The notes under the pieces are model-generated. The model made no database searches. It was given only the letters and a program-made list of their open reading frames with translations, and was not told the DNA's origin. A stretch of DNA of 48,932 nucleotides from a virus (taxonomy: Duplodnaviria > Heunggongvirae > Uroviricota > Caudoviricetes). Position numbers and translations under genes: made by a program. The stretch is taken from IMG/VR virus record IMGVR_UViG_640753024_000009. The stretch is one strand, 5' to 3'. Positions within the stretch are counted from its first letter, which is position 1, and each line of letters starts with the position of its first letter. Shown piece by piece: positions 16,746 through 37,751 of this stretch.

Positions 16746-18712
<1,967 letters not shown>

Positions 18713-18813: not shown

Positions 18814-19451
18814 ACTCCGCCGAGGGGATAGGTATCCTCGGCTATCCAGTACCCAACCGCGGCCCCGTTTTTATCGATATCAACACCGGCGCGGCGAAAT
18901 TGAGTGTCAGCTGCGTAGCCAGGATTTCGAATTCGTTTCGGTGAGACCATTTTGAATCGCGTCCGAAAAACGCTGCCGGCGCAGCTCTCCCACACCGGTT
19001 GTACGCAGGTTTCACCGTTGAACGCGTGAGTGGCCACGCCTTCGCGAATCATCATTGTGAACGTCCGTTTCCGCTCGATATCAATCGTGCAGTGAGGGTC
19101 CTCGGCGTATTCAGTCCACGCGACCTCAACGTCACGCGCCAGCGCCCTGGCGTCCTCGCGAGATATCCCGATGTAACGCCAGTTAGGGCGATAACTCAAC
19201 TTAAACAGATTGCCGACGATATGATCCTGATGCAGCTGCACGGCGTTCGACGCGACGCCGTTATTACGAACGAGATCGTCTGCTCGCGCGTTACCGCGAT
19301 AAAAATTAGGCAGCAGTGCCGCATCGGCGCTTTGCTGTGGTGCATTCCAGTCAATCAGCTGGCCACCGAAGCCGGGACCGCCGCCGTTATACCCCGCGTA
19401 ACGGCGTAGTGGCGTTTTACCGTCAGGCCCGAGCAACTGCTGAGCAGTCAT
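18814..19451 (-). pseudogene. Portal protein (lambda gpB family), N-terminal fragment truncated by the IS element
   Basis: LLGPDGKTPLRRYAGYNGGGPGFGGQL and LPNFYRGNARADDLVRNNG match the lambda B N-terminus; ORF runs into IS sequence and stops 9 codons later. Confidence 0.85.
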
Positions 19452-28368: not shown

Positions 28369-29148
28369 ATGAGCAACAAAGATTTTTCACTTTTTTATTT
28401 TGCAACCATTGATCGGTCTTACTTCCTCGACAAACACAATTTTTATGTTGCTGAAGCCAGAAAGCGTCTATTTTCGCAGTTTAGCGATTCTGATCTTGAA
28501 GCTGAAGCCAGGCAGAGAGAACAAGATTACTATGAGGCCGCCGGTAAGCGTTTTGACCCCGATTATGACGACGAAGGGGCTATCTGTGAACAGGCTCATG
28601 ATGAAGGAATTTCACATTGGATTGCTCTCAGTGATATGAAAAATACGGTTTCACTTGCTCTGACAGCAGGAATGTTTCATCAGTTCGACAAGGAACTTAG
28701 AGAGAAGTGTATCAGAGAATTCAGCCATTGGCTCGACGCTAAATCCGTAACATCGATGATCTGGGACATTAGCTTCCCAAGGCTAATTGAAATTCTAGAA
28801 TGGATTGGGATGGATATCACCAGCAAGGCTTATTACGAAAAAATCGATGCCTGTCGCCAAGTGGTTAATGTTTATAAGCACGGTGATGGCCATGCCCATC
28901 GGGTGCTTTCCGTCGCGCATCCTGAGTATTATCAGGATATCAATATTCCAAGAGGCTACAGATTTAGTCTACGTCATGAGCAACTTGAGGTTACAGAAAC
29001 ACAGTTTATAGAGTTTGCAGATGCGATTACAGCTTTCTGGAATGATATCCCAACATACTGTATGCGCTCAGCTATTCGGGAAGAACCTGAATGGATAAAA
29101 GGCGAATATAAAAAACATGAGAAGAAAGTTAAAATGCTTCAGGACTAA
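28369..29148 (+). CDS. Hypothetical protein (259 aa), accessory island cargo
   Basis: SD GAGGGA 8 nt upstream of ATG at 28369; opposite strand to phage backbone; no recognised domain. Confidence 0.55.
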   Translation: MSNKDFSLFYFATIDRSYFLDKHNFYVAEARKRLFSQFSDSDLEAEARQREQDYYEAAGKRFDPDYDDEGAICEQAHDEGISHWIALSDMKNTVSLALTAGMFHQFDKELREKCIREFSHWLDAKSVTSMIWDISFPRLIEILEWIGMDITSKAYYEKIDACRQVVNVYKHGDGHAHRVLSVAHPEYYQDINIPRGYRFSLRHEQLEVTETQFIEFADAITAFWNDIPTYCMRSAIREEPEWIKGEYKKHEKKVKMLQD

Positions 29149-29233
29149 AATTCTTGATAATAGCAAGTGTATCCTACATGTAGACATTTGCCTGCCGTGT
29201 CTTTTAGCTACCCTAGCTGCGAGAACAATTACG

Positions 29234-29339
29234 AACTTCCGCTCCTCGCTCACAGCGAACTTTCAACTCAGTTAGCTTGCCCGCTTCGTACCAAAAGCGG
29301 GCATTGCTAACATCTATCTCCATCAATCTGTGGGAACAG
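29234..29339 (+). repeat. Structured island repeat, copy 1
   Basis: Shares CTCGCTCACAGCG box (29245-29257), hairpin GCCCGCTT...AAGCGGGC (29279-29302), GCTAACA and GTGGGAACAG boxes with copies 2 and 3. Confidence 0.7.
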
Positions 29340-29626
29340 CTCGCCGTAATAGCACATTGAATCCTATGTCTAAAAGCAGATGTTCTGGTTTGCCGGGAAA
29401 TTTACAAAATGACGGCGTCTCTTGTTAGAGGTTCTCCCTGCTTCACACTGCTGATTCTTCATGGATTTTAGTATAATTAGTGAAAAAAATTTTTTTGGTT
29501 GTTATCATATACATGAGGACTTCTTCAGAAGAACTGAGAAAAATTCGGGGTTCACTTAACACAATGACAATTAAGAAGATTAACTGTCTGGTAAGTGATT
29601 ATTTTATTCATTAAAAAACAAACATC

Positions 29627-30289
29627 ATGATAATTGACTTTATAAAAAGCAAGGAAGCCTTGCTAATATTGGCAATAACTGTTCTATCTTATATGTCTGC
29701 AATTTCATTTGAATATGGCTATGCATATCATTTTGATTATCCTATGGAGTTTATAACGTTAGATTCTAAATTTTTATTCGTGGGTATGTCATATTTATTT
29801 TTTAATATAATTTGTGTTATGTTGATGTTTTTTACTCCATGGCCTGAAAGTAAAGTAAAAGCAGTTAAAGTTACTGCAGTTACAGTTTTTATCATGATTG
29901 TTTTTATTGTTCAGTCTTATAGACATAAGACTGAATATGGTGGTTTTTTCGTTTTAAGTTTATCGATAGCAACAGTTACTTATATTATATACAAAATTGT
30001 TAAAAATCATAAACGTAATCCAAGTTATTTAATTTGGTCTGCAACCCTTCCCCTTATTGCCATAATGACATTTAGTTTCTTAATTGGTTTACAACAAGCG
30101 TCATTAAAAAAAGAATTTAGTTACTTTCATGATCAATCTAAAGACTACGTGATTATTAGGTTGTATGACGGTAACCTTGTCGCTAAAGAAGTAAATATAA
30201 AAGAGCGCAAGCTAGGGAGTGAGATATTATATATACCTAGCTATAACCCAGCCCCTATAACGTTAAATAAAATTAAAATAGAACAATAG
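29627..30289 (+). CDS. Multi-pass membrane protein (220 aa), very AT-rich
   Basis: At least four hydrophobic helices; low-GC coding sequence; flanked by repeat copies 1 and 2. Confidence 0.6.
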   Translation: MIIDFIKSKEALLILAITVLSYMSAISFEYGYAYHFDYPMEFITLDSKFLFVGMSYLFFNIICVMLMFFTPWPESKVKAVKVTAVTVFIMIVFIVQSYRHKTEYGGFFVLSLSIATVTYIIYKIVKNHKRNPSYLIWSATLPLIAIMTFSFLIGLQQASLKKEFSYFHDQSKDYVIIRLYDGNLVAKEVNIKERKLGSEILYIPSYNPAPITLNKIKIEQ

Positions 30290-30432
30290 ATTCATATAGT
30301 GGCCTTATGAAAAATAGGTCACTATCGTTGATATTTCATATGAATTTTTAACGACCTTGGTAGTAAAATTATCGTAAATCCCCTACATAACAAGACCATT
30401 TACTATAGATCTGTTTTACTCTCAATAAAATC

Positions 30433-30532
30433 AACTTCCGCTCCTCGCTCACAGCGGACCTTCAGTTTTTGTCCGCTTCGTGTCAGAAGCGGAAGTAGCT
30501 AACAACAGCCTATGTTGATTCAAGGGGAACAG
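30433..30532 (+). repeat. Structured island repeat, copy 2
   Basis: AACTTCCGCTCCTCGCTCACAGCG block identical to copy 1; hairpin TCCGCTTC...GAAGCGGA (30472-30493); GCTAACA; GGGGAACAG (30524-30532). Confidence 0.7.
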
Positions 30533-30611
30533 GTCACTGGGTTAATCTAATTATGTCCCTTTAGAACCATCTTTCTTAAGTGAATATATTTTCACTTTAT
30601 TTTCTACTGCC

Positions 30612-31991
30612 TCAGTCATAAGGTTTGTTTTTGGCTTTTGACATCATGAGAAGGAAATATGAAGGGTGGCTCTTTATTTCTGAAGAATGGCTTGTAATAT
30701 TAAAGACATCTTTTAGAATCGTAAAAGCTCCTGTAGCCAACGACACTGGATTTGGTGCACCAATAAAACCTATCAATGAAGGCACACTGTTAAGAAAAAG
30801 TTCTTTTTTACTCTTCCGCTTATAGGCTTGTATTTTTTGCTCAATATCTGTCAATCCTTCATCCCACACCCGCTCGACAAAATGTTGATTTATTAGTTGT
30901 CTCTTATATGGATCACTTTCTGCTTCTATATCATACGCAGCTTCACGTAGTACAGAGCGGAAAGAATTAAAACTCGGCTCGTAGTCAGTTCTAATTTTGT
31001 AGAGTTCACTTGGAGTCAGTCCCTCTAAGAATGGAACGTCTATAGAGAGTTTAACCCTCTGAACTTCATTCTTTTGATCAAGTTTACGAAGAATCTCTCC
31101 ATGAAACGGGCAATATGCCCCCAGGGATGCTCTACATGAATGCGCTTGGTTAAGGTCAGTAATAAGGTTTTTATAATGAAAGAGAACCGTACGGTTTTTT
31201 GCTCCCTGCACCCACCGTTCATAACTTTTTTTTCCGCTATGATTTCCCATGACAAGCTCCATAGATATGGAGCCATCATCATTATCAATGGCATTTTTTA
31301 TATGTTGATACATATATCCATTTGTATATAAACTTTCACAGTCTTTAATTTCCAACATAATTTCATTAGATAAAACATTTTTGTTTAATAACCGAATTTT
31401 ATTTGTATTACCTAGACGTTCTATATTCTTTACGGATAGTCTATTTTCATAAAGACGGGCAATGTTAGGAGGGAGATATCGATATATAAAATTAGCATCA
31501 GAGTTATCGTCTAAAATTCCATTGGCCCTCTCCGAATCTTTAATAGAAGATTCGCTGCGTACAAAAACGATAAACTCACCACGGATAAGATCAAAGTTTT
31601 CTTTAGCAAACCTGATAAATCTAGCAATTTCCTTCCTGAGATGTTCAACCTTCTCTTTTCTATCGCTTACAATAATTTTTTCAAATGCATTTTCTGTTAG
31701 ACTCACTCTGTATCGTAGGCTCAATGAATACAGAACATCATCAAGAATGACTCTGTCCATTGAAAACAGTCCACTCTTATACCTTTCAATATTACGATTT
31801 CCCGCCATGTAAACATTTAGCCGAGACTCCTGTACAGAATTTGCTTGCTCGATAATCAGTGAATCTATTCTTTTATTATATTCATCTAACTCAATTAGCA
31901 ATTCATTCAATCCAATATTTTCATATTCCTGATCTAAAAGTCGATCAACCCAGAAAAGGCTTTCTGTGAGGGCATAGAGGTTGTTGTACAT
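30612..31991 (-). CDS. Hypothetical protein (459 aa), AT-rich
   Basis: AGGA 7 nt upstream of ATG at 31991; convergent with the membrane protein gene; flanked by repeat copies 2 and 3; no recognised domain. Confidence 0.6.
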   Translation of the reverse strand: MYNNLYALTESLFWVDRLLDQEYENIGLNELLIELDEYNKRIDSLIIEQANSVQESRLNVYMAGNRNIERYKSGLFSMDRVILDDVLYSLSLRYRVSLTENAFEKIIVSDRKEKVEHLRKEIARFIRFAKENFDLIRGEFIVFVRSESSIKDSERANGILDDNSDANFIYRYLPPNIARLYENRLSVKNIERLGNTNKIRLLNKNVLSNEIMLEIKDCESLYTNGYMYQHIKNAIDNDDGSISMELVMGNHSGKKSYERWVQGAKNRTVLFHYKNLITDLNQAHSCRASLGAYCPFHGEILRKLDQKNEVQRVKLSIDVPFLEGLTPSELYKIRTDYEPSFNSFRSVLREAAYDIEAESDPYKRQLINQHFVERVWDEGLTDIEQKIQAYKRKSKKELFLNSVPSLIGFIGAPNPVSLATGAFTILKDVFNITSHSSEIKSHPSYFLLMMSKAKNKPYD

Positions 31992-32150
31992 ATCAGTTCC
32001 TTTTTACCAGGCTTCAGTCAGAGTACACTATCATTTTACATTTAAATGTACTTCCAAGCATCATGCTGTTAGTGCCGGATTATAACACTTGGCACCCGTA
32101 TGTTTGGATAACAAACTGCGTATAATCCTTGTGAGTTGTGATGTCTGTTT

Positions 32151-32250
32151 CTCGCTCACAGCGGGTCTTCAGTTGTTCGTCCACTCTGTGCCAGGAGCGG
32201 ACATTGATTATTCCTCACTGTAAAAATCTTAATGCTAACTAGTGGGAACT
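32151..32250 (+). repeat. Structured island repeat, copy 3
   Basis: CTCGCTCACAGCG (32151-32163); hairpin GTCCACTC...GAGCGGAC (32179-32202); GCTAACT and GTGGGAAC (32242-32249). Confidence 0.65.
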
Positions 32251-32271: not shown

Positions 32272-33123
<852 letters not shown>

Positions 33124-33203: not shown

Positions 33204-34439
33204 ATGACTAAGCGAAATAAAACCCCAAAATTTAACTTGGACAAAGCTCGCAAAAAAGAGATTCGCGCAGCCTTAACCAGCGTGGGTATGACCCCTCAAC
33301 ATGATGGCTGGGCGGATTTGTTTATGTACGCTTATACAGATGGCAGCAATTTAAACGGTTTGCAATTGGCCAAAGCCTTATCAGTGCATCCAACACTGAT
33401 AAATGGTTTATCGCGCGGCATCAAATTAAAACCAGAGAAAGCGCTCTCCAAAAAACGACCATCAAAACCTACGCTGGCCGATAAACGCCGCGAGGCCAAA
33501 CAGAAGGTCAATATGGGCTGGGAAGCGCTGATTCGCACTATGCCTATGCAAAAGCCAGGCGCACGCAAAAACCCTGAAACAGAAGCCCTTTGGGAGAATG
33601 CCCGTCGCCGTGGCACGTCCCAGGCCAGCACGCCAGCATTTACGCCGACAATCATCCCGCGCAAGGTTTCCGCTCAAATCAACACCGAATTACCAGGCCT
33701 GCAATCAACGCAGATGGAAACACCGAAACGGTATGATTCTGTGAGCATGACATCAAAAGTTACGACAAAGCTGGATAATCGCGTCCTACAGGATTTTCTG
33801 GCAAAACACATTCCAGCCAGCCAGCGTCGTGATGTTGAGCTTTATATCCACAAACACCAGCATGAAGCCACCACGACCATTGAACTGGTGCAGCGGTACC
33901 TGGATGATCAGGAAGAAAAGCAAATCATCCGAGAAGCCGAGAAGCTGGCCGACGTTGTTCCGGAACTGGTAGCCGATGATCGAATCATCATGTCGCAGGA
34001 AGTAGTGGTCGTCGTGGAGGAAGAGAAACCCGCGCCCGCGCTTGGCCAACCTGTCAAACTCCACAGTACCCGAACCGCGCAGCGCATCGTTGAGCAGCGC
34101 GACACGACGGCGCATATGCAGTTTGTTGAATGGGTATGGAATAATTTTGCTGGCCGTTGCGCGGTGACTGGCTGGCAGAACGGCGAACGATTGCAAGCGG
34201 CGCACATTGAGCCAGCTACCTCAGGCAATTTTAGCGCTGATAATGGCCTGTTGTTGACTCCAACGATACACGACTTACTAGACGCAGAGCTGATGGCCGT
34301 CAACCCTGAAACAATGACCGTACATTTTGCCCCAGGTATTGAGCTCGGCGCGATGTTTGAAGGCAAAGTGATTGAGCCTAAATTATGGCCGCTGAACATG
34401 GCCGCGTTGGTTAAACGCTGGAAAGAACGGAAATTCTGA
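33204..34439 (+). CDS. HNH nuclease domain protein (411 aa)
   Basis: C-terminal CAVTGWQNGERLQAAHIEPATSGNFSADNGLLLTPTIHDLLD fits an HNH motif; basic N-terminal 300 aa unassigned; 80 bp downstream of the GIY-YIG gene on the same strand. Confidence 0.6.
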   Translation: MTKRNKTPKFNLDKARKKEIRAALTSVGMTPQHDGWADLFMYAYTDGSNLNGLQLAKALSVHPTLINGLSRGIKLKPEKALSKKRPSKPTLADKRREAKQKVNMGWEALIRTMPMQKPGARKNPETEALWENARRRGTSQASTPAFTPTIIPRKVSAQINTELPGLQSTQMETPKRYDSVSMTSKVTTKLDNRVLQDFLAKHIPASQRRDVELYIHKHQHEATTTIELVQRYLDDQEEKQIIREAEKLADVVPELVADDRIIMSQEVVVVVEEEKPAPALGQPVKLHSTRTAQRIVEQRDTTAHMQFVEWVWNNFAGRCAVTGWQNGERLQAAHIEPATSGNFSADNGLLLTPTIHDLLDAELMAVNPETMTVHFAPGIELGAMFEGKVIEPKLWPLNMAALVKRWKERKF

Positions 34440-34570: not shown

Positions 34571-35131
34571 ATGAACGGAATATCAAAAATCATCTTAGCA
34601 CTGACCGCTGGATTTACGCTGTCCGGATGTGTAAGCCATACCCAAAAAAATTCACAACCAGATCCGGCTGCAATCGAGGCGGCAAAACTTGCGCAGTACA
34701 CCGATTCACAGCTTTGCCAGGCAGAAGATAATATAGAGCCATTGCTCAACCTTAATCCATCATCTCATCCTGAATTTAATGAAAATTATCGCCGCGCCCA
34801 GGCTATTAAAAAGGTGATCGCCTCTCGTAATTTAAGCTGCTACCGCCTGAAAATGGAGAGGGCAGAACAGGCCACACCAGCACGCCCGTTAAGCCCACGA
34901 CAAAAACAAGCGAGGGCATCCGCTGTTTGCCAGGCTTACGCCCAGCGTACCCGATTTGCGGATCCGACAGTCACATTTCAGATGTGCGGGAAAGGATTCC
35001 AGTCTACTTCGGCAAAATGTAAGGAAGATTTGGCGAGTTTTGAACGTGAGTCTCAGAAACTTAGAGGTACGGCCAGAGCGGAATATGTTGAAATTAGCAG
35101 TGCATTTCGGGCAGGCTGTACTTTAAAATAA
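34571..35131 (+). CDS. Lipoprotein (186 aa)
   Basis: Signal peptide with lipobox LTAGFTLSGC; AGGA upstream of ATG. Confidence 0.6.
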   Translation: MNGISKIILALTAGFTLSGCVSHTQKNSQPDPAAIEAAKLAQYTDSQLCQAEDNIEPLLNLNPSSHPEFNENYRRAQAIKKVIASRNLSCYRLKMERAEQATPARPLSPRQKQARASAVCQAYAQRTRFADPTVTFQMCGKGFQSTSAKCKEDLASFERESQKLRGTARAEYVEISSAFRAGCTLK

Positions 35132-35583
35132 AAAATGAAGTAATATTAATAACGCAATTGAATTTAAAAAAATCAATGCCTACTCGGTGCCATATACAGC
35201 CATTGTTATTAACAGCAGGGAATAATTCCACACTGAAATTAAATGTCTACCTTTTACAGTAGAAATAGTTCCTCCAGGACACTATCCATTGCCGGGCACA
35301 ATCACTCGGGGTATAACGATATAAAATATGTTCATGATAGTGCAGGTTCGTATATTAAGTTCAGCAGCGAAAACATGCCCTGCAGGTTTCCGGTTTTGGG
35401 AGCGTCGTTACAGGATCCTGTGCATACCGTTCCCATCTGTTGAATTAAAGGTTTCACAGCCTTTGCCGATATCACCTTTTACCTTGCCTGTGATGCGTTC
35501 AGTGCTCAGCGTTGTTTACTGTAGCTCTCGGAACTGATTACAGACCGCGTCTTAAAAACCAATCCTTACTCTAAAGGGAATTC

Positions 35584-36507
35584 ATGAGATTAAAATACTC
35601 AGTACTCTTACTCGCCATTGCCCTTACAGGCTGTGATAACAAAAAAGATGAGATCGGTTGTTCTTCGGAAATGACCCAATCAGCTCTCATGGATTTATTA
35701 AAAAAATCTGCTTATGAAGGACTCTCTGAACAGGTCGATAAATACCCTGATGTCACTAATCAGACCAAACGAAGCACACTGGACAAGATCAAACTAGCCG
35801 TCTCTGAAATCTCCACAACATCAAGTGACACGGGCAGCACAATGAAAACTTGTGAAGGGACCGTGACGATGACTCTACCTGCGAACGAGTACGTCCAGCT
35901 TTCTGATGCTTACAGAAAGAATTTTAATCGTAATCTCGATAAGCAAATGGAAAATCTGTTTTTGGAGAACAACGCAAACGCCTTTTCAAAACGTATCACC
36001 TACACCGTGCAGGCGACCGACGATCAGAAAAACGTTTTTGTAAAAACCTCTTCTGATAATCCGATATCAGTGGGCGCCGCTTTACTGACATCGCTTTCCA
36101 TTATCAACCCGATCGTTGAGCAGCAGAAAATCCAGCAGGCTAAGGATGCCCAACAGAGTCAAATTGAAGCGGAACAACAGGTGCAACTCAGGGCACAGGA
36201 ACAGGCCAGGTATGAGGCGGAGAAGCAAAAAGAGAGGCAGGCACAACTTCAGCCGCAAAAATCTGAAAGCCTTGATCAGTCCCGAATGGCATTTGCAAAT
36301 GCTGACTCTGATTTGAATACCGTCTGGAGCAAGTTAACCCCGGCGAAGAAAAAAGAGTTGCTGCCTTCTCAGCGCCAGTGGATCAAAACTAAGGATGCTA
36401 TGTGCGGTAAAGTTTCAATGCAGGGAACAGATGCTGAAGTCAAGAAAATGGTCGACTGCCAGACGCAAATGACCCTTTCAAGAATCGCTTTCCTCAGAAA
36501 CCAATAA
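35584..36507 (+). CDS. Lipoprotein with C-terminal LprI-like (DUF1311) domain
   Basis: Lipobox LLAIALTGC; Gln/Glu-rich coiled region; C-terminal LNTVWSKL...QRQWIKTKDAMCG...QTQMTLSRIAFL resembles DUF1311. Confidence 0.6.
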   Translation: MRLKYSVLLLAIALTGCDNKKDEIGCSSEMTQSALMDLLKKSAYEGLSEQVDKYPDVTNQTKRSTLDKIKLAVSEISTTSSDTGSTMKTCEGTVTMTLPANEYVQLSDAYRKNFNRNLDKQMENLFLENNANAFSKRITYTVQATDDQKNVFVKTSSDNPISVGAALLTSLSIINPIVEQQKIQQAKDAQQSQIEAEQQVQLRAQEQARYEAEKQKERQAQLQPQKSESLDQSRMAFANADSDLNTVWSKLTPAKKKELLPSQRQWIKTKDAMCGKVSMQGTDAEVKKMVDCQTQMTLSRIAFLRNQ

Positions 36508-36684: not shown

Positions 36685-37479
36685 TCAAAATGCTGAATCA
36701 GCAACAGATACAGCCGACTTTTCCCCCATTAGCATCAATTTATCCAGCGTCATACTTCGCAGGTTGTCGCTGTGGATCACCAGATACCCTGCCCGCTCAG
36801 CGATCTCTTTGAAAGCGTCAAAAGTCATCAGATGTTCGCCTTTGGCAACATGGCGCATCCTGGTCACTTTTCCATTTTTGATAGTGGTGATAAAAGAAAA
36901 ATCTGGAATGGTTGGCTGCTTTTCATCGAGCAGCAGGCAGTGGATGTATTCAATCGCTTCTAACATTTGCGCCTGTGACAGTTGTTCTATGTGAGAGACG
37001 GCGAAGCGTTGATGAATCATGGTATAAGCATCGGGATACATCATGCCTTTCTTGCCGACCAGCATATTAACGGCATCACGTAAGGGGGTGCGGTCATCGG
37101 TGGTTGTACTCCGCCTCTCTGGACGCTGGCTAAAATAGCAATCTTCAAGCTTTTCGAAAACTTCCCAGGCCTGTTCTGTTTCCAGCATTTTGGCATGGCG
37201 AGCTGCGCCGCATTCTGTCCAGAGGATGAGAGAGCGGACATTTCTGGCGATTTTCACAGGAGGTCTTAAAGACATGCTGTGCTTAAATTCGCGCAACTCC
37301 TCACCTTCGAGCAAAAAGTAATGCTTCCCGACCACGAATCGCTCTGAGTTCCGGTTATGGTTTTTACGAATGTAATCCGGCTCTGTGCCATAGAGGTTCG
37401 CGAGTAATTCGGTGGTGAGGACGGGAAGTTGGTTGTGGATAATCGGGGAGATGGCTGCTGCGGATACTTGAGTTGTCAT
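36685..37479 (-). CDS. Antirepressor-like protein with N-terminal ORF6N/KilA-N-type DNA-binding domain
   Basis: LTTELLANLYGTEPDYIRKNHNRNSERFVVGKHYFLLEGEELREFK resembles the ORF6N domain of phage antirepressors; AGGA upstream of ATG at 37479. Confidence 0.55.
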   Translation of the reverse strand: MTTQVSAAAISPIIHNQLPVLTTELLANLYGTEPDYIRKNHNRNSERFVVGKHYFLLEGEELREFKHSMSLRPPVKIARNVRSLILWTECGAARHAKMLETEQAWEVFEKLEDCYFSQRPERRSTTTDDRTPLRDAVNMLVGKKGMMYPDAYTMIHQRFAVSHIEQLSQAQMLEAIEYIHCLLLDEKQPTIPDFSFITTIKNGKVTRMRHVAKGEHLMTFDAFKEIAERAGYLVIHSDNLRSMTLDKLMLMGEKSAVSVADSAF

Positions 37480-37636
37480 AGCGATTTCCTTTTAGTCGGA
37501 TAATCACCCCCCTCAGGTGCAAATCTTTGGGTGGTGAGACATGCAGGGTTTGCACTACCGGCTAAAAGGACCCGGCGAGCCTTTCGACTCCCCTACACGC
37601 CCCACCATAAATCGCGGATGTGGCTGTGCGCACGAC

Positions 37637-37659
37637 AATAAAAAAGACGCTGGCGCGTC
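37637..37659 (-). terminator. Intrinsic terminator ending the rightward early (replication/nin) transcript
   Basis: Palindrome GACGCTGGCGCGTC followed on the minus strand by TTTTTTATTG. Confidence 0.5.
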
Positions 37660-37751
37660 GTTGTCGCCTTTTAGATATCCGGGGTGCAAATCCCGGCAAC
37701 CGATTTTGCGGCTGCGCGGAAACTATAGCCCCGGGCTTTTTCTAAGTCAAT

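Follow-up and report, generated by a model that had tools for sequence, protein, structure and literature searches.

We analyzed two convergent genes in a 48,932-nucleotide (nt) stretch of viral DNA (IMG/VR record IMGVR_UViG_640753024_000009; "the window" refers to this whole stretch). One gene encodes a predicted membrane protein of 220 amino acids (aa) and the other encodes a soluble protein of 459 aa. We conclude that they are probably two adjacent, independent single-gene cargo cassettes in the nin-like region of a defective lambdoid prophage and not a two-gene system, and that anti-phage roles are most likely for them. Copies of a palindromic repeat separate the two genes instead of enclosing them, and a module made of the 220-aa and 459-aa proteins is very unlikely. 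This result redirects follow-up from a two-gene module to each cassette alone. The most unusual feature of the region is the palindromic junction element together with the cassette-array architecture. The features concerned are as follows.

29627-30289, + strand: open reading frame (ORF) of 220 aa, WP_000582583.1 (ORF list, hydropathy and AlphaFold 2 (AF2) secondary structure)
30612-31991, - strand: ORF of 459 aa, WP_000282641.1, member of a large unannotated family
29394-30433, no strand: membrane-protein cassette (cassette A), 79.7% identical by blastn over 1045 nt to Klebsiella P4-like satellites (L003-L009)
30537-32164, no strand: 459-aa cassette (cassette B), shared with an Escherichia coli CP4-like island, Pectobacterium and Serratia, and with a Morganella P2-like prophage only to about 32084
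29223-29318, + strand: repeat R1, between the 259-aa and membrane cassettes (covariance model 81.8 bits, E 7e-21; direct-repeat families D1/D2)
30422-30510, + strand: repeat R2, between the two convergent genes (covariance model 86.1 bits, E 4e-22; 26-nt arms, 77% complementary)
32129-32218, + strand: repeat R3, between the 459-aa and PD-T4-3 cassettes (covariance model 79.2 bits, E 4e-20)

Distribution and boundaries of the two genes

The initial annotation of the window had described the two genes as one repeat-bounded module of the abortive-infection or exclusion type. Much of its description was confirmed. The two ORFs converge (29627-30289, +; 30612-31991, -), a repeat copy brackets each gene, with all three copies on the + strand, and the prophage accessory locus lies between the replication genes and Q. 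Further, the region is the most AT-rich stretch of the window; the lowest guanine-plus-cytosine (GC) fraction in any 1-kb interval (0.308) was found at 29501-30500, and the GC content was 28.8% in the membrane gene, 35.8% in the 459-aa gene and 48.1% in the window. An orientation opposite to the phage backbone had been ascribed to both genes. This is correct for the membrane gene but not for the 459-aa gene, which is on the - strand together with the flanking Q/nin and replication genes.

The proposal that the two genes form one module was not borne out. The membrane gene was detected in 6 of 5426 complete E. coli genomes, all with this prophage. A gene-specific search detected the 459-aa gene in 57 of these genomes, namely the same 6 and 51 without the membrane gene. 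Thus, the genes occurred together only in one prophage lineage (6/5426 genomes, at least 99.7% identity). The 51 further copies of the 459-aa gene were 90-95% identical to that of the window, and all of those inspected were located in a CP4-like island lacking the membrane gene. The order of genes in the island is GTPase, 172-aa AbiU2-like HEPN protein, 459-aa gene and type I restriction-modification (RM) system, with DarTG in addition in the O157 island. Klebsiella satellites carry the membrane gene without the 459-aa gene. Further, the 459-aa homologue was found without either partner gene described below in Pectobacterium, where it is flanked by a radical-SAM/HemN-like gene and an IS3 element, and in a small integrase islet of Cronobacter. 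The initial annotation had itself named co-occurrence across genomes as a check on the pairing; because the genes co-occur only in one prophage lineage, and each travels alone elsewhere, this check essentially refutes it. The two genes do not constitute one operon because their orientation is convergent, and R2 lies between them.

The limits of the cassettes were defined as the blastn end points of the locus against all fetched loci. The order of the array is the 259-aa gene, R1, the 220-aa membrane-protein gene, R2, the 459-aa gene, R3 and PD-T4-3, and the repeats are co-oriented. Cassette A takes in about 230 nt upstream of the ATG, and its far end is the first base of R2. The end points of the 459-aa cassette were 30565-32162 (O157 island), 30537-32156 (Pectobacterium), 30628-32164 (Serratia) and 30636-32084 (Morganella P2-like prophage). 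In three independent contexts (O157, Pectobacterium and Serratia), shared DNA therefore ends no more than 10 nt apart, inside the left arm of R3. With a related prophage (L038), the window shares the PD-T4-3 cassette from position 32141 onward, which is also where the R3 palindrome begins. The shared DNA of each of the two genes reaches R2 or comes to within about 30 nt of it, and the junction alignments revealed that similarity collapses in the middle of the element. Prophage L038 shares its backbone flanks with the window but carries other cargo, comprising genes for proteins of 125 aa, 158 aa (DUF6650) and 251 aa and PD-T4-3, which face either way and are delimited by three co-oriented repeats. 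Because the shared DNA of the cassettes ends at or within the repeat copies, these copies mark the junctions where cargo swaps and, judging from the positions of the breakpoints, probably promote the exchange. Possible drivers are site-specific recombination and short-homology (Red-type) recombination; alternatively, the element may be a mere passenger of the exchange.

The window corresponds to a lambdoid prophage of E. coli O139:H28 E24377A (NC_009801.1, approximately 2.20 Mb), in which the 3.3 kb around both genes was 100% identical; the same held for five other complete E. coli genomes. According to the RefSeq annotation, the prophage, read on the minus strand, comprises terminase, lysis genes, Q, DUF1364/DUF1367, the accessory block, a replicative helicase and cro/cI-like regulators. 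Both genes are within this accessory block, with the Q/nin-like genes on one side and the replication genes on the other. The portal gene (about 18825-19451, annotated as incomplete) is interrupted by an IS21-family element (istB/istA, ISEc62 family, 16746-18712). Because of this interruption the prophage is defective, and it is probably unable to form particles.

The palindromic junction element

The repeat is an imperfect palindrome of about 75-96 nt. Its left half, TCCGCTCCTCGCTC(A/T)CAGCGGACCTTCA, is nearly invariant, and its right half is more variable. The outer arms are (A)CTTCCGCT...AGCGGAAG(T), with an optional extension, TGTTAGCAA...TTGCTAACA. The hairpin potential of the repeat is real. 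When folded as DNA, R1 reached -20.1 kcal/mol (z -5.8) and R2 had a z of -5.0; two of the three window copies fold far better than shuffles. In the repeat alignment, 92% of cells were paired compared with 32-49% in slid controls. Further, the 21-nt core pattern had three matches in the window and none in 100 shuffles.

A candidate for a fourth repeat at 35140-35211 was rejected, as the covariance model did not recover it. We also rejected an intrinsic terminator as the identity of the repeat; the terminator scan reported none at the three copies, and the letters that follow the hairpin (AGCTAACAAC and TTGATTATTCC) have no T-run signature. In Rfam, the repeat had no match at the gathering score, and the only hit was CRISPR-DR28 at a chance-level E of 0.62.

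Of the 5426 E. coli genomes, 542 contained the repeat, each with 1-3 copies, and it was also present in 19 IMG/VR loci. These copies reside in lambdoid prophages, a P2-like phage, CP4-like islands and other islands, and all copies examined stand between accessory genes. In the P2-like phage 899, the repeat lies between two cargo genes in the tail-fibre/sheath hotspot; the 461-aa cargo protein beside it was considered as a homologue of the 459-aa protein and proved not to be one. In the MS 115-1 island, three copies separate OLD-TOPRIM, a hypothetical gene, IS30/DinB and LmuB, and in the O157 island a copy lies upstream of the 459-aa gene. Other neighbours were a restriction endonuclease and a DEAD/DEAH helicase, and one copy was located between NUDIX and DinB genes. 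The positions of copies in other loci are as follows.

L038: 3112-3207, 4011-4106 and 5237-5326
L021: 1391-1486, 3009-3104 and 4991-5086
L002: 9599-9694
L020: 3989-4084

The array resembles integron attC arrays in that single-gene cassettes lie between co-oriented imperfect palindromes of about 60-100 nt. Further, cassette homology breaks at or inside the palindrome (30433, 32141 and 32156-32164), and one family of sites accompanies many cargos. In contrast to integrons, the repeat consensus lacks the RYYYAAC/GTTRRRY core sites, gene orientation is mixed and each gene brings its own upstream region, the annotation of the 27 kb inspected lists no integron integrase, and the repeat occurs in four unrelated kinds of mobile element at 1-3 copies per genome. 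A bolder reading, which we regard as rather unlikely, is that the palindrome is the recombination site of an undescribed, integron-like cassette exchange without a linked dedicated integrase, and that the 459-aa and five-helix membrane proteins are two new anti-phage families carried by it. Such a system would transfer accessory genes singly, including many anti-phage genes, among lambdoid prophages, P2-like phages, CP4-like islands and other elements of Enterobacterales, and the 459-aa protein would be a modular core recruiting a PD-T4-6-like kinase or a ribbon-helix-helix (RHH)-like regulator. How defence cargo swaps so fast between unrelated elements was left open in earlier work (PMC9122126; PMC13586616), and the junction element, if a true promoter of exchange, would provide a mechanistic handle on this swapping. 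In the literature searched, we found neither the repeat core nor an "attC-like" match for prophage defence.

The two proteins and their partners

The 220-aa protein had been described as multi-pass, and its hydropathy profile, with five peaks above 1.6, agrees with this description and predicts five transmembrane (TM) helices. The AF2 secondary structure comprises five long helices and, at the C-terminus, a four-stranded beta domain of about 60 aa, at low confidence (predicted local distance difference test (pLDDT) 45). The loop at residues 29-48 is acidic, and those around 70-78 and 125-134 are basic. By the positive-inside rule, which we applied ourselves rather than computing a topology, these charges suggest that the N-terminus is inside and the C-terminus outside; the beta domain is therefore probably periplasmic. 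The protein was represented by only 4 clusters among 5.8 billion protein sequences. Searches of Pfam, NCBIfam and PHROG returned nothing at the curated threshold, and the best family match was 7TMR-DISM_7TM (19.7 bits versus a cut-off of 29).

Outside E. coli, relatives of the membrane gene (85% aa identity) were found only in Klebsiella P4-like satellites (L003-L009, 6001-7625), directly after the primase gene. In these satellites, the membrane gene converges on a 261-aa gene that lacks annotation and matched nothing in Pfam or PADLOC. We considered this neighbour as a shared partner and rejected it, because its product is unrelated to the 459-aa and 259-aa proteins of the window. In one Klebsiella lineage (P0035), the membrane gene has a frameshifted C-terminus. 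In the window, a hairpin with a 9-bp stem (ATAGTGGCC...GGTCACTAT, 30296-30325) begins seven bases past the stop codon of the membrane gene, within the cassette shared with Klebsiella. This hairpin may terminate transcription of the membrane gene; for want of a clear T-run, it was absent from the output of the terminator scan.

The initial annotation had assigned each gene its own ribosome-binding site. This holds for the 459-aa gene, in which the Shine-Dalgarno-like AAGGA precedes the ATG by 6 nt, but not for the membrane gene, which is preceded by the letters AAAAAACAAACATC without a Shine-Dalgarno match. A candidate promoter of the 459-aa gene, the extended -10-like motif TGTTATAAT (32079-32087, - strand), lies about 90 nt upstream of the start, inside the cassette, and its conservation among the copies of O157, Pectobacterium and Serratia is only partial.

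The large protein is soluble, as had been expected; it has no TM-grade segment (maximum KD19 1.18), and a moderately hydrophobic stretch lies around residues 398-425. Its AF2 model (pLDDT 72; predicted template modelling score (pTM) 0.70) begins with an alpha/beta region at the N-terminus, has a beta-sheet in the centre (about 185-250) and is helical in its C-terminal half. The moderately hydrophobic C-terminal tail is modelled with low confidence and bears an invariant HPSYF motif. A profile search of 1.84 billion representatives identified 444 clusters (E<=1e-3), nearly all of about 450 aa and matching end to end; at least 444 clusters at 50% identity is thus a lower bound of the family size. 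The 31 close clusters are in Enterobacterales. A scan for related loci with close alignment matched a single species-representative genome. Across 60 diverse family members, only Y38, D85 and W260 were invariant; with these three residues and no catalytic motif, no mechanism is readable from the 459-aa sequence. Neither protein has a motif that can be assigned, as the initial annotation had held. Pfam, NCBIfam and PHROG contained no match to the 459-aa protein, and the 60 family members had none in Pfam and PHROGs. PADLOC-DB v2.0.0 had no match for either window protein (E<=1) nor for the 60 family members (E<=0.01), and sequence profile searches of the PDB found nothing credible. The literature searched mentions neither protein accession, nor the repeat core.

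The ratio of non-synonymous to synonymous substitution (dN/dS) was 0.11-0.14 for both genes versus relatives at a synonymous distance of 0.3-0.95 (0.119 for the membrane gene versus the Klebsiella copy). Because of these values, we consider both to be genuine coding genes under purifying selection. The 459-aa family is conserved at full length from 91% down to about 18% identity over hundreds of clusters. Some E. coli island copies of the 459-aa gene are broken by IS2 or frameshifts, which is a common pattern for costly accessory genes.

In other lineages, the 459-aa protein has partners. A Morganella P2-like prophage (L012-L014, 6001-9033) carries a homologue of 455 aa between gpA and the portal gene, followed by a kinase gene, and a Serratia integrase islet (L011, 6001-9038) likewise carries a 455-aa homologue and then a kinase gene. 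The Ser/Thr kinase (534 aa) is encoded 66 nt downstream of the 455-aa gene on the same strand, and it resembles PD-T4-6 (E 2.6e-30) and mad6. The Morganella and Serratia kinases have diverged to 65% identity. Because the arrangement is kept in two different mobile elements despite this divergence, the 455-aa gene and the kinase gene are a candidate two-gene system, which is possibly, though not necessarily, related to "Bandua" (nuclease and kinase; PMC13586616). There is no kinase in the window by tblastn, and none adjoins the E. coli 459-aa gene.

A different partner, a protein of 361-363 aa with an RHH-like N-terminus (weak DUF6364 match), is encoded 10-13 nt upstream of the 455-aa homologue in Pantoea, Yersinia and the Klebsiella plasmid pBckp067. 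The loci are as follows.

L015/L016, 4905-7374: Pantoea
L017-L019, 4896-7365: Yersinia
L053, 3905-6374: Klebsiella plasmid

This partner was found only in a clade about 38-40% identical to the 459-aa protein of the window. In pP35B, the other of the two Klebsiella plasmids examined, the upstream gene encodes only 206 aa and is 264 nt away. The Pantoea and Yersinia partners are only 40% identical, and the pairing is therefore old. A relationship between the RHH-like 361-aa partner and the kinase was considered and rejected, as the two are unrelated. A small, antitoxin-like gene adjacent to the 459-aa gene was found neither in the window nor in the E. coli island, Pectobacterium or Cronobacter; these copies thus lack the layout of a type II toxin-antitoxin system. 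In our reading, the 459-aa protein has been supplemented in particular lineages with the kinase or the RHH-like protein.

Candidate functions and the surrounding array

According to the interpretation that we favour, a variable array of cargo would have been inserted into the interval that separates the replication genes from the Q antiterminator, with palindromes separating the cassettes. The inner-membrane protein of cassette A, with its five predicted TM helices, would act alone in superinfection exclusion or in membrane-acting abortive infection, which is its most likely role considering its topology and its presence in the Klebsiella P4-like antiviral hotspot. The cytoplasmic 459-aa protein of cassette B would be self-sufficient against phages, both sensing and acting; this role is most likely in light of its recurrent solo presence in defence hotspots and islands. 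In E. coli it presumably works alone, because it is intact and under purifying selection when solo. Its coupling to other genes elsewhere suggests an extendable core module, whose output or control would be extended by the PD-T4-6-like Ser/Thr kinase or the RHH-like 361-aa protein.

A defence or exclusion function had been proposed for the two genes jointly. As a joint function this fails, but for each gene separately a defence role is plausible from the company kept by its relatives, which occur in antiviral hotspots and islands. Experimental work has established the P2 and P4 hotspots as reservoirs of antiviral systems (PMC9122126), and six of eight randomly chosen unknown P4-hotspot loci protected against phages (PMC13586616). 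Because relatives of both genes sit in these reservoirs, defence is the best guess. Further, members of the 459-aa family are located next to PD-T4-3 (window), next to type I RM and DarTG (O157 island) and, on Klebsiella plasmids, next to Ppl, a HEPN nuclease and DUF4238, and a distant member adjoins an NB-ARC STAND protein. The 459-aa family, with at least 444 clusters, no annotation and no recognisable fold, and with members in P2 hotspots, defence islands and plasmid defence loci, is thus a concrete new anti-phage candidate.

Comparison with known systems gave a similar picture. The Klebsiella relatives of the membrane gene and the Morganella 455-aa homologue occupy the P2/P4 hotspots (Rousset et al., 2022, PMC9122126; NAR 2026, PMC13586616), and the two genes share with hotspot cargo that they are AT-rich, rapidly swapped and often single. 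In contrast, the window copies reside in a lambdoid prophage between replication genes and Q and match no PADLOC v2 model. The hotspot location was therefore found for the homologues (L003-L009, after the primase; L012-L014, between gpA and portal) but not for the window copies themselves. PD-T4-3 and PD-T4-6 are single-gene systems from an E. coli pangenome screen (Vassallo et al., 2022, PMC9519451). In the array, the cassette that follows R3 carries PD-T4-3, and the Morganella/Serratia kinase is PD-T4-6-like, whereas neither the 220-aa nor the 459-aa protein is homologous to these systems.

The membrane proteins HK97 gp15, P22 SieA/SieB and lambda RexB serve prophages in superinfection exclusion or abortive infection. 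The 220-aa protein is similar to them as a small, multi-pass inner-membrane protein of a temperate element, encoded in its own cassette and without an enzymatic domain. It differs in that it has no similarity to Pfam, PHROGs or PADLOC families, is predicted to have five TM helices and a beta domain, and has no conserved RexA-like partner. The lambda nin region, located between the replication genes and Q, is variable and dispensable, and "morons" are independently transcribed, AT-rich foreign genes. The array of the window is likewise variable and lies between replication genes and Q; however, at about 9 kb, with multiple cassettes, a validated defence gene and conserved palindromic junction elements, it is outside the classical description.

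Several observations weigh against the interpretation of two independent anti-phage cassettes. Neither protein is linked to defence by homology in PADLOC, Pfam, NCBIfam or PHROG, including the 60 family members, and neither was present in 50,697 isolated phage genomes. The broad 459-aa family has no recognisable catalytic motif, and a structural match search with its model gave none. The AF2 model of the membrane protein is unreliable (pLDDT 45) and too poor for a fold search. The membrane gene has a convergent gene after it in both known contexts, which leaves formal room for a loose functional tie with whatever follows it. With regard to the repeat, the putative recombination role is deduced only from breakpoint positions, and covariation was no higher than in shuffles, so that the element is not callable as a selected RNA structure. 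Finally, repeat-flanked cargo includes non-defence genes, with NUDIX, DinB and DJ-1 neighbours as examples. An argument by association therefore carries less weight at this locus, and a non-defence "moron" role keeps an appreciable probability.

Accordingly, cargo unrelated to phage defence is a minor though real possibility. The membrane protein would then be a lysogenic-conversion or host-fitness factor, and the 459-aa protein would serve in element maintenance or addiction, in counter-defence or in the control of induction. Genes delimited by the repeat elsewhere include NUDIX, DinB, DJ-1/PfpI and AraC neighbours, the 459-aa family is common on conjugative Klebsiella plasmids near replication and integrase genes, and the RHH-like protein encoded 10-13 nt upstream in Pantoea, Yersinia and pBckp067 resembles a toxin-antitoxin or addiction layout. 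However, known antiviral genes adjoin in at least seven independent contexts, and the P2/P4 hotspot positions are specifically enriched for antiviral systems. Further, the E. coli, Pectobacterium and Cronobacter copies have no antitoxin-like partner yet are intact under purifying selection, which argues against an unconditional toxin. The two-gene module, in which a soluble 459-aa sensor would be paired with a membrane effector and the outer repeats would be the bounds, is highly improbable. The two genes are adjacent, both are low in GC and they lie in a defence-rich accessory locus, and membrane effectors with soluble partners are common in P4/P2 hotspot systems (PMC9122126). Nevertheless, the distribution described above, with 51 genomes that carry the 459-aa gene without the membrane gene, Klebsiella satellites that show the reverse and co-occurrence in a single prophage lineage (6/5426), argues against this module, as do the convergent orientation, which precludes one operon, and the presence of R2 between the genes, where the transferable DNA of each stops. 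The 459-aa homologues, moreover, have the kinase, the RHH-like protein or no partner. Hardly credible, finally, is an origin of the two ORFs by chance or by gene decay in AT-rich junk DNA. The prophage is defective, with an IS21-family element in its portal gene, the membrane gene has no Shine-Dalgarno match and some island copies of the 459-aa gene are disrupted, but this is countered by the dN/dS of 0.11-0.14 at a synonymous divergence of 0.3-0.95, by the full-length conservation from 91% to about 18% identity in hundreds of clusters, and by an AF2 model of the 459-aa protein that is confident enough for a folded protein.

The neighbouring cassettes of the array are the following.

28369-29148, + strand: protein of 259 aa, function unknown, cassette to the left of R1 (PHROG 19541, unknown function, 3e-127)
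32317-33123, + strand: PD-T4-3 GIY-YIG protein (PADLOC PD-T4-3, 6.9e-138; Pfam LEM-3_GIY-YIG, 7e-13; RefSeq annotation)

The 259-aa protein had no Pfam or PADLOC match. PD-T4-3 is followed by a gene for a 411-aa HNH-domain protein at 33204-34439 (PHROG 23050; the PADLOC HNH match is weak). Further unknown cargo lies beyond the HNH gene, encoding proteins of 186 aa (34571-35131) and 307 aa (LprI domain, 35584-36507). With PD-T4-3, the HNH gene and this further cargo, the accessory block is therefore a multi-gene island of the defence type inside the prophage. At the right edge of the variable block, an ORF6N-domain gene (36685-37479, - strand) adjoins Rfam matches on the - strand to C4 antisense RNA (73.6 bits) and isrK (76.2 bits) at 37527-37612 and 37640-37715, forming a regulatory module of the antirepressor type.

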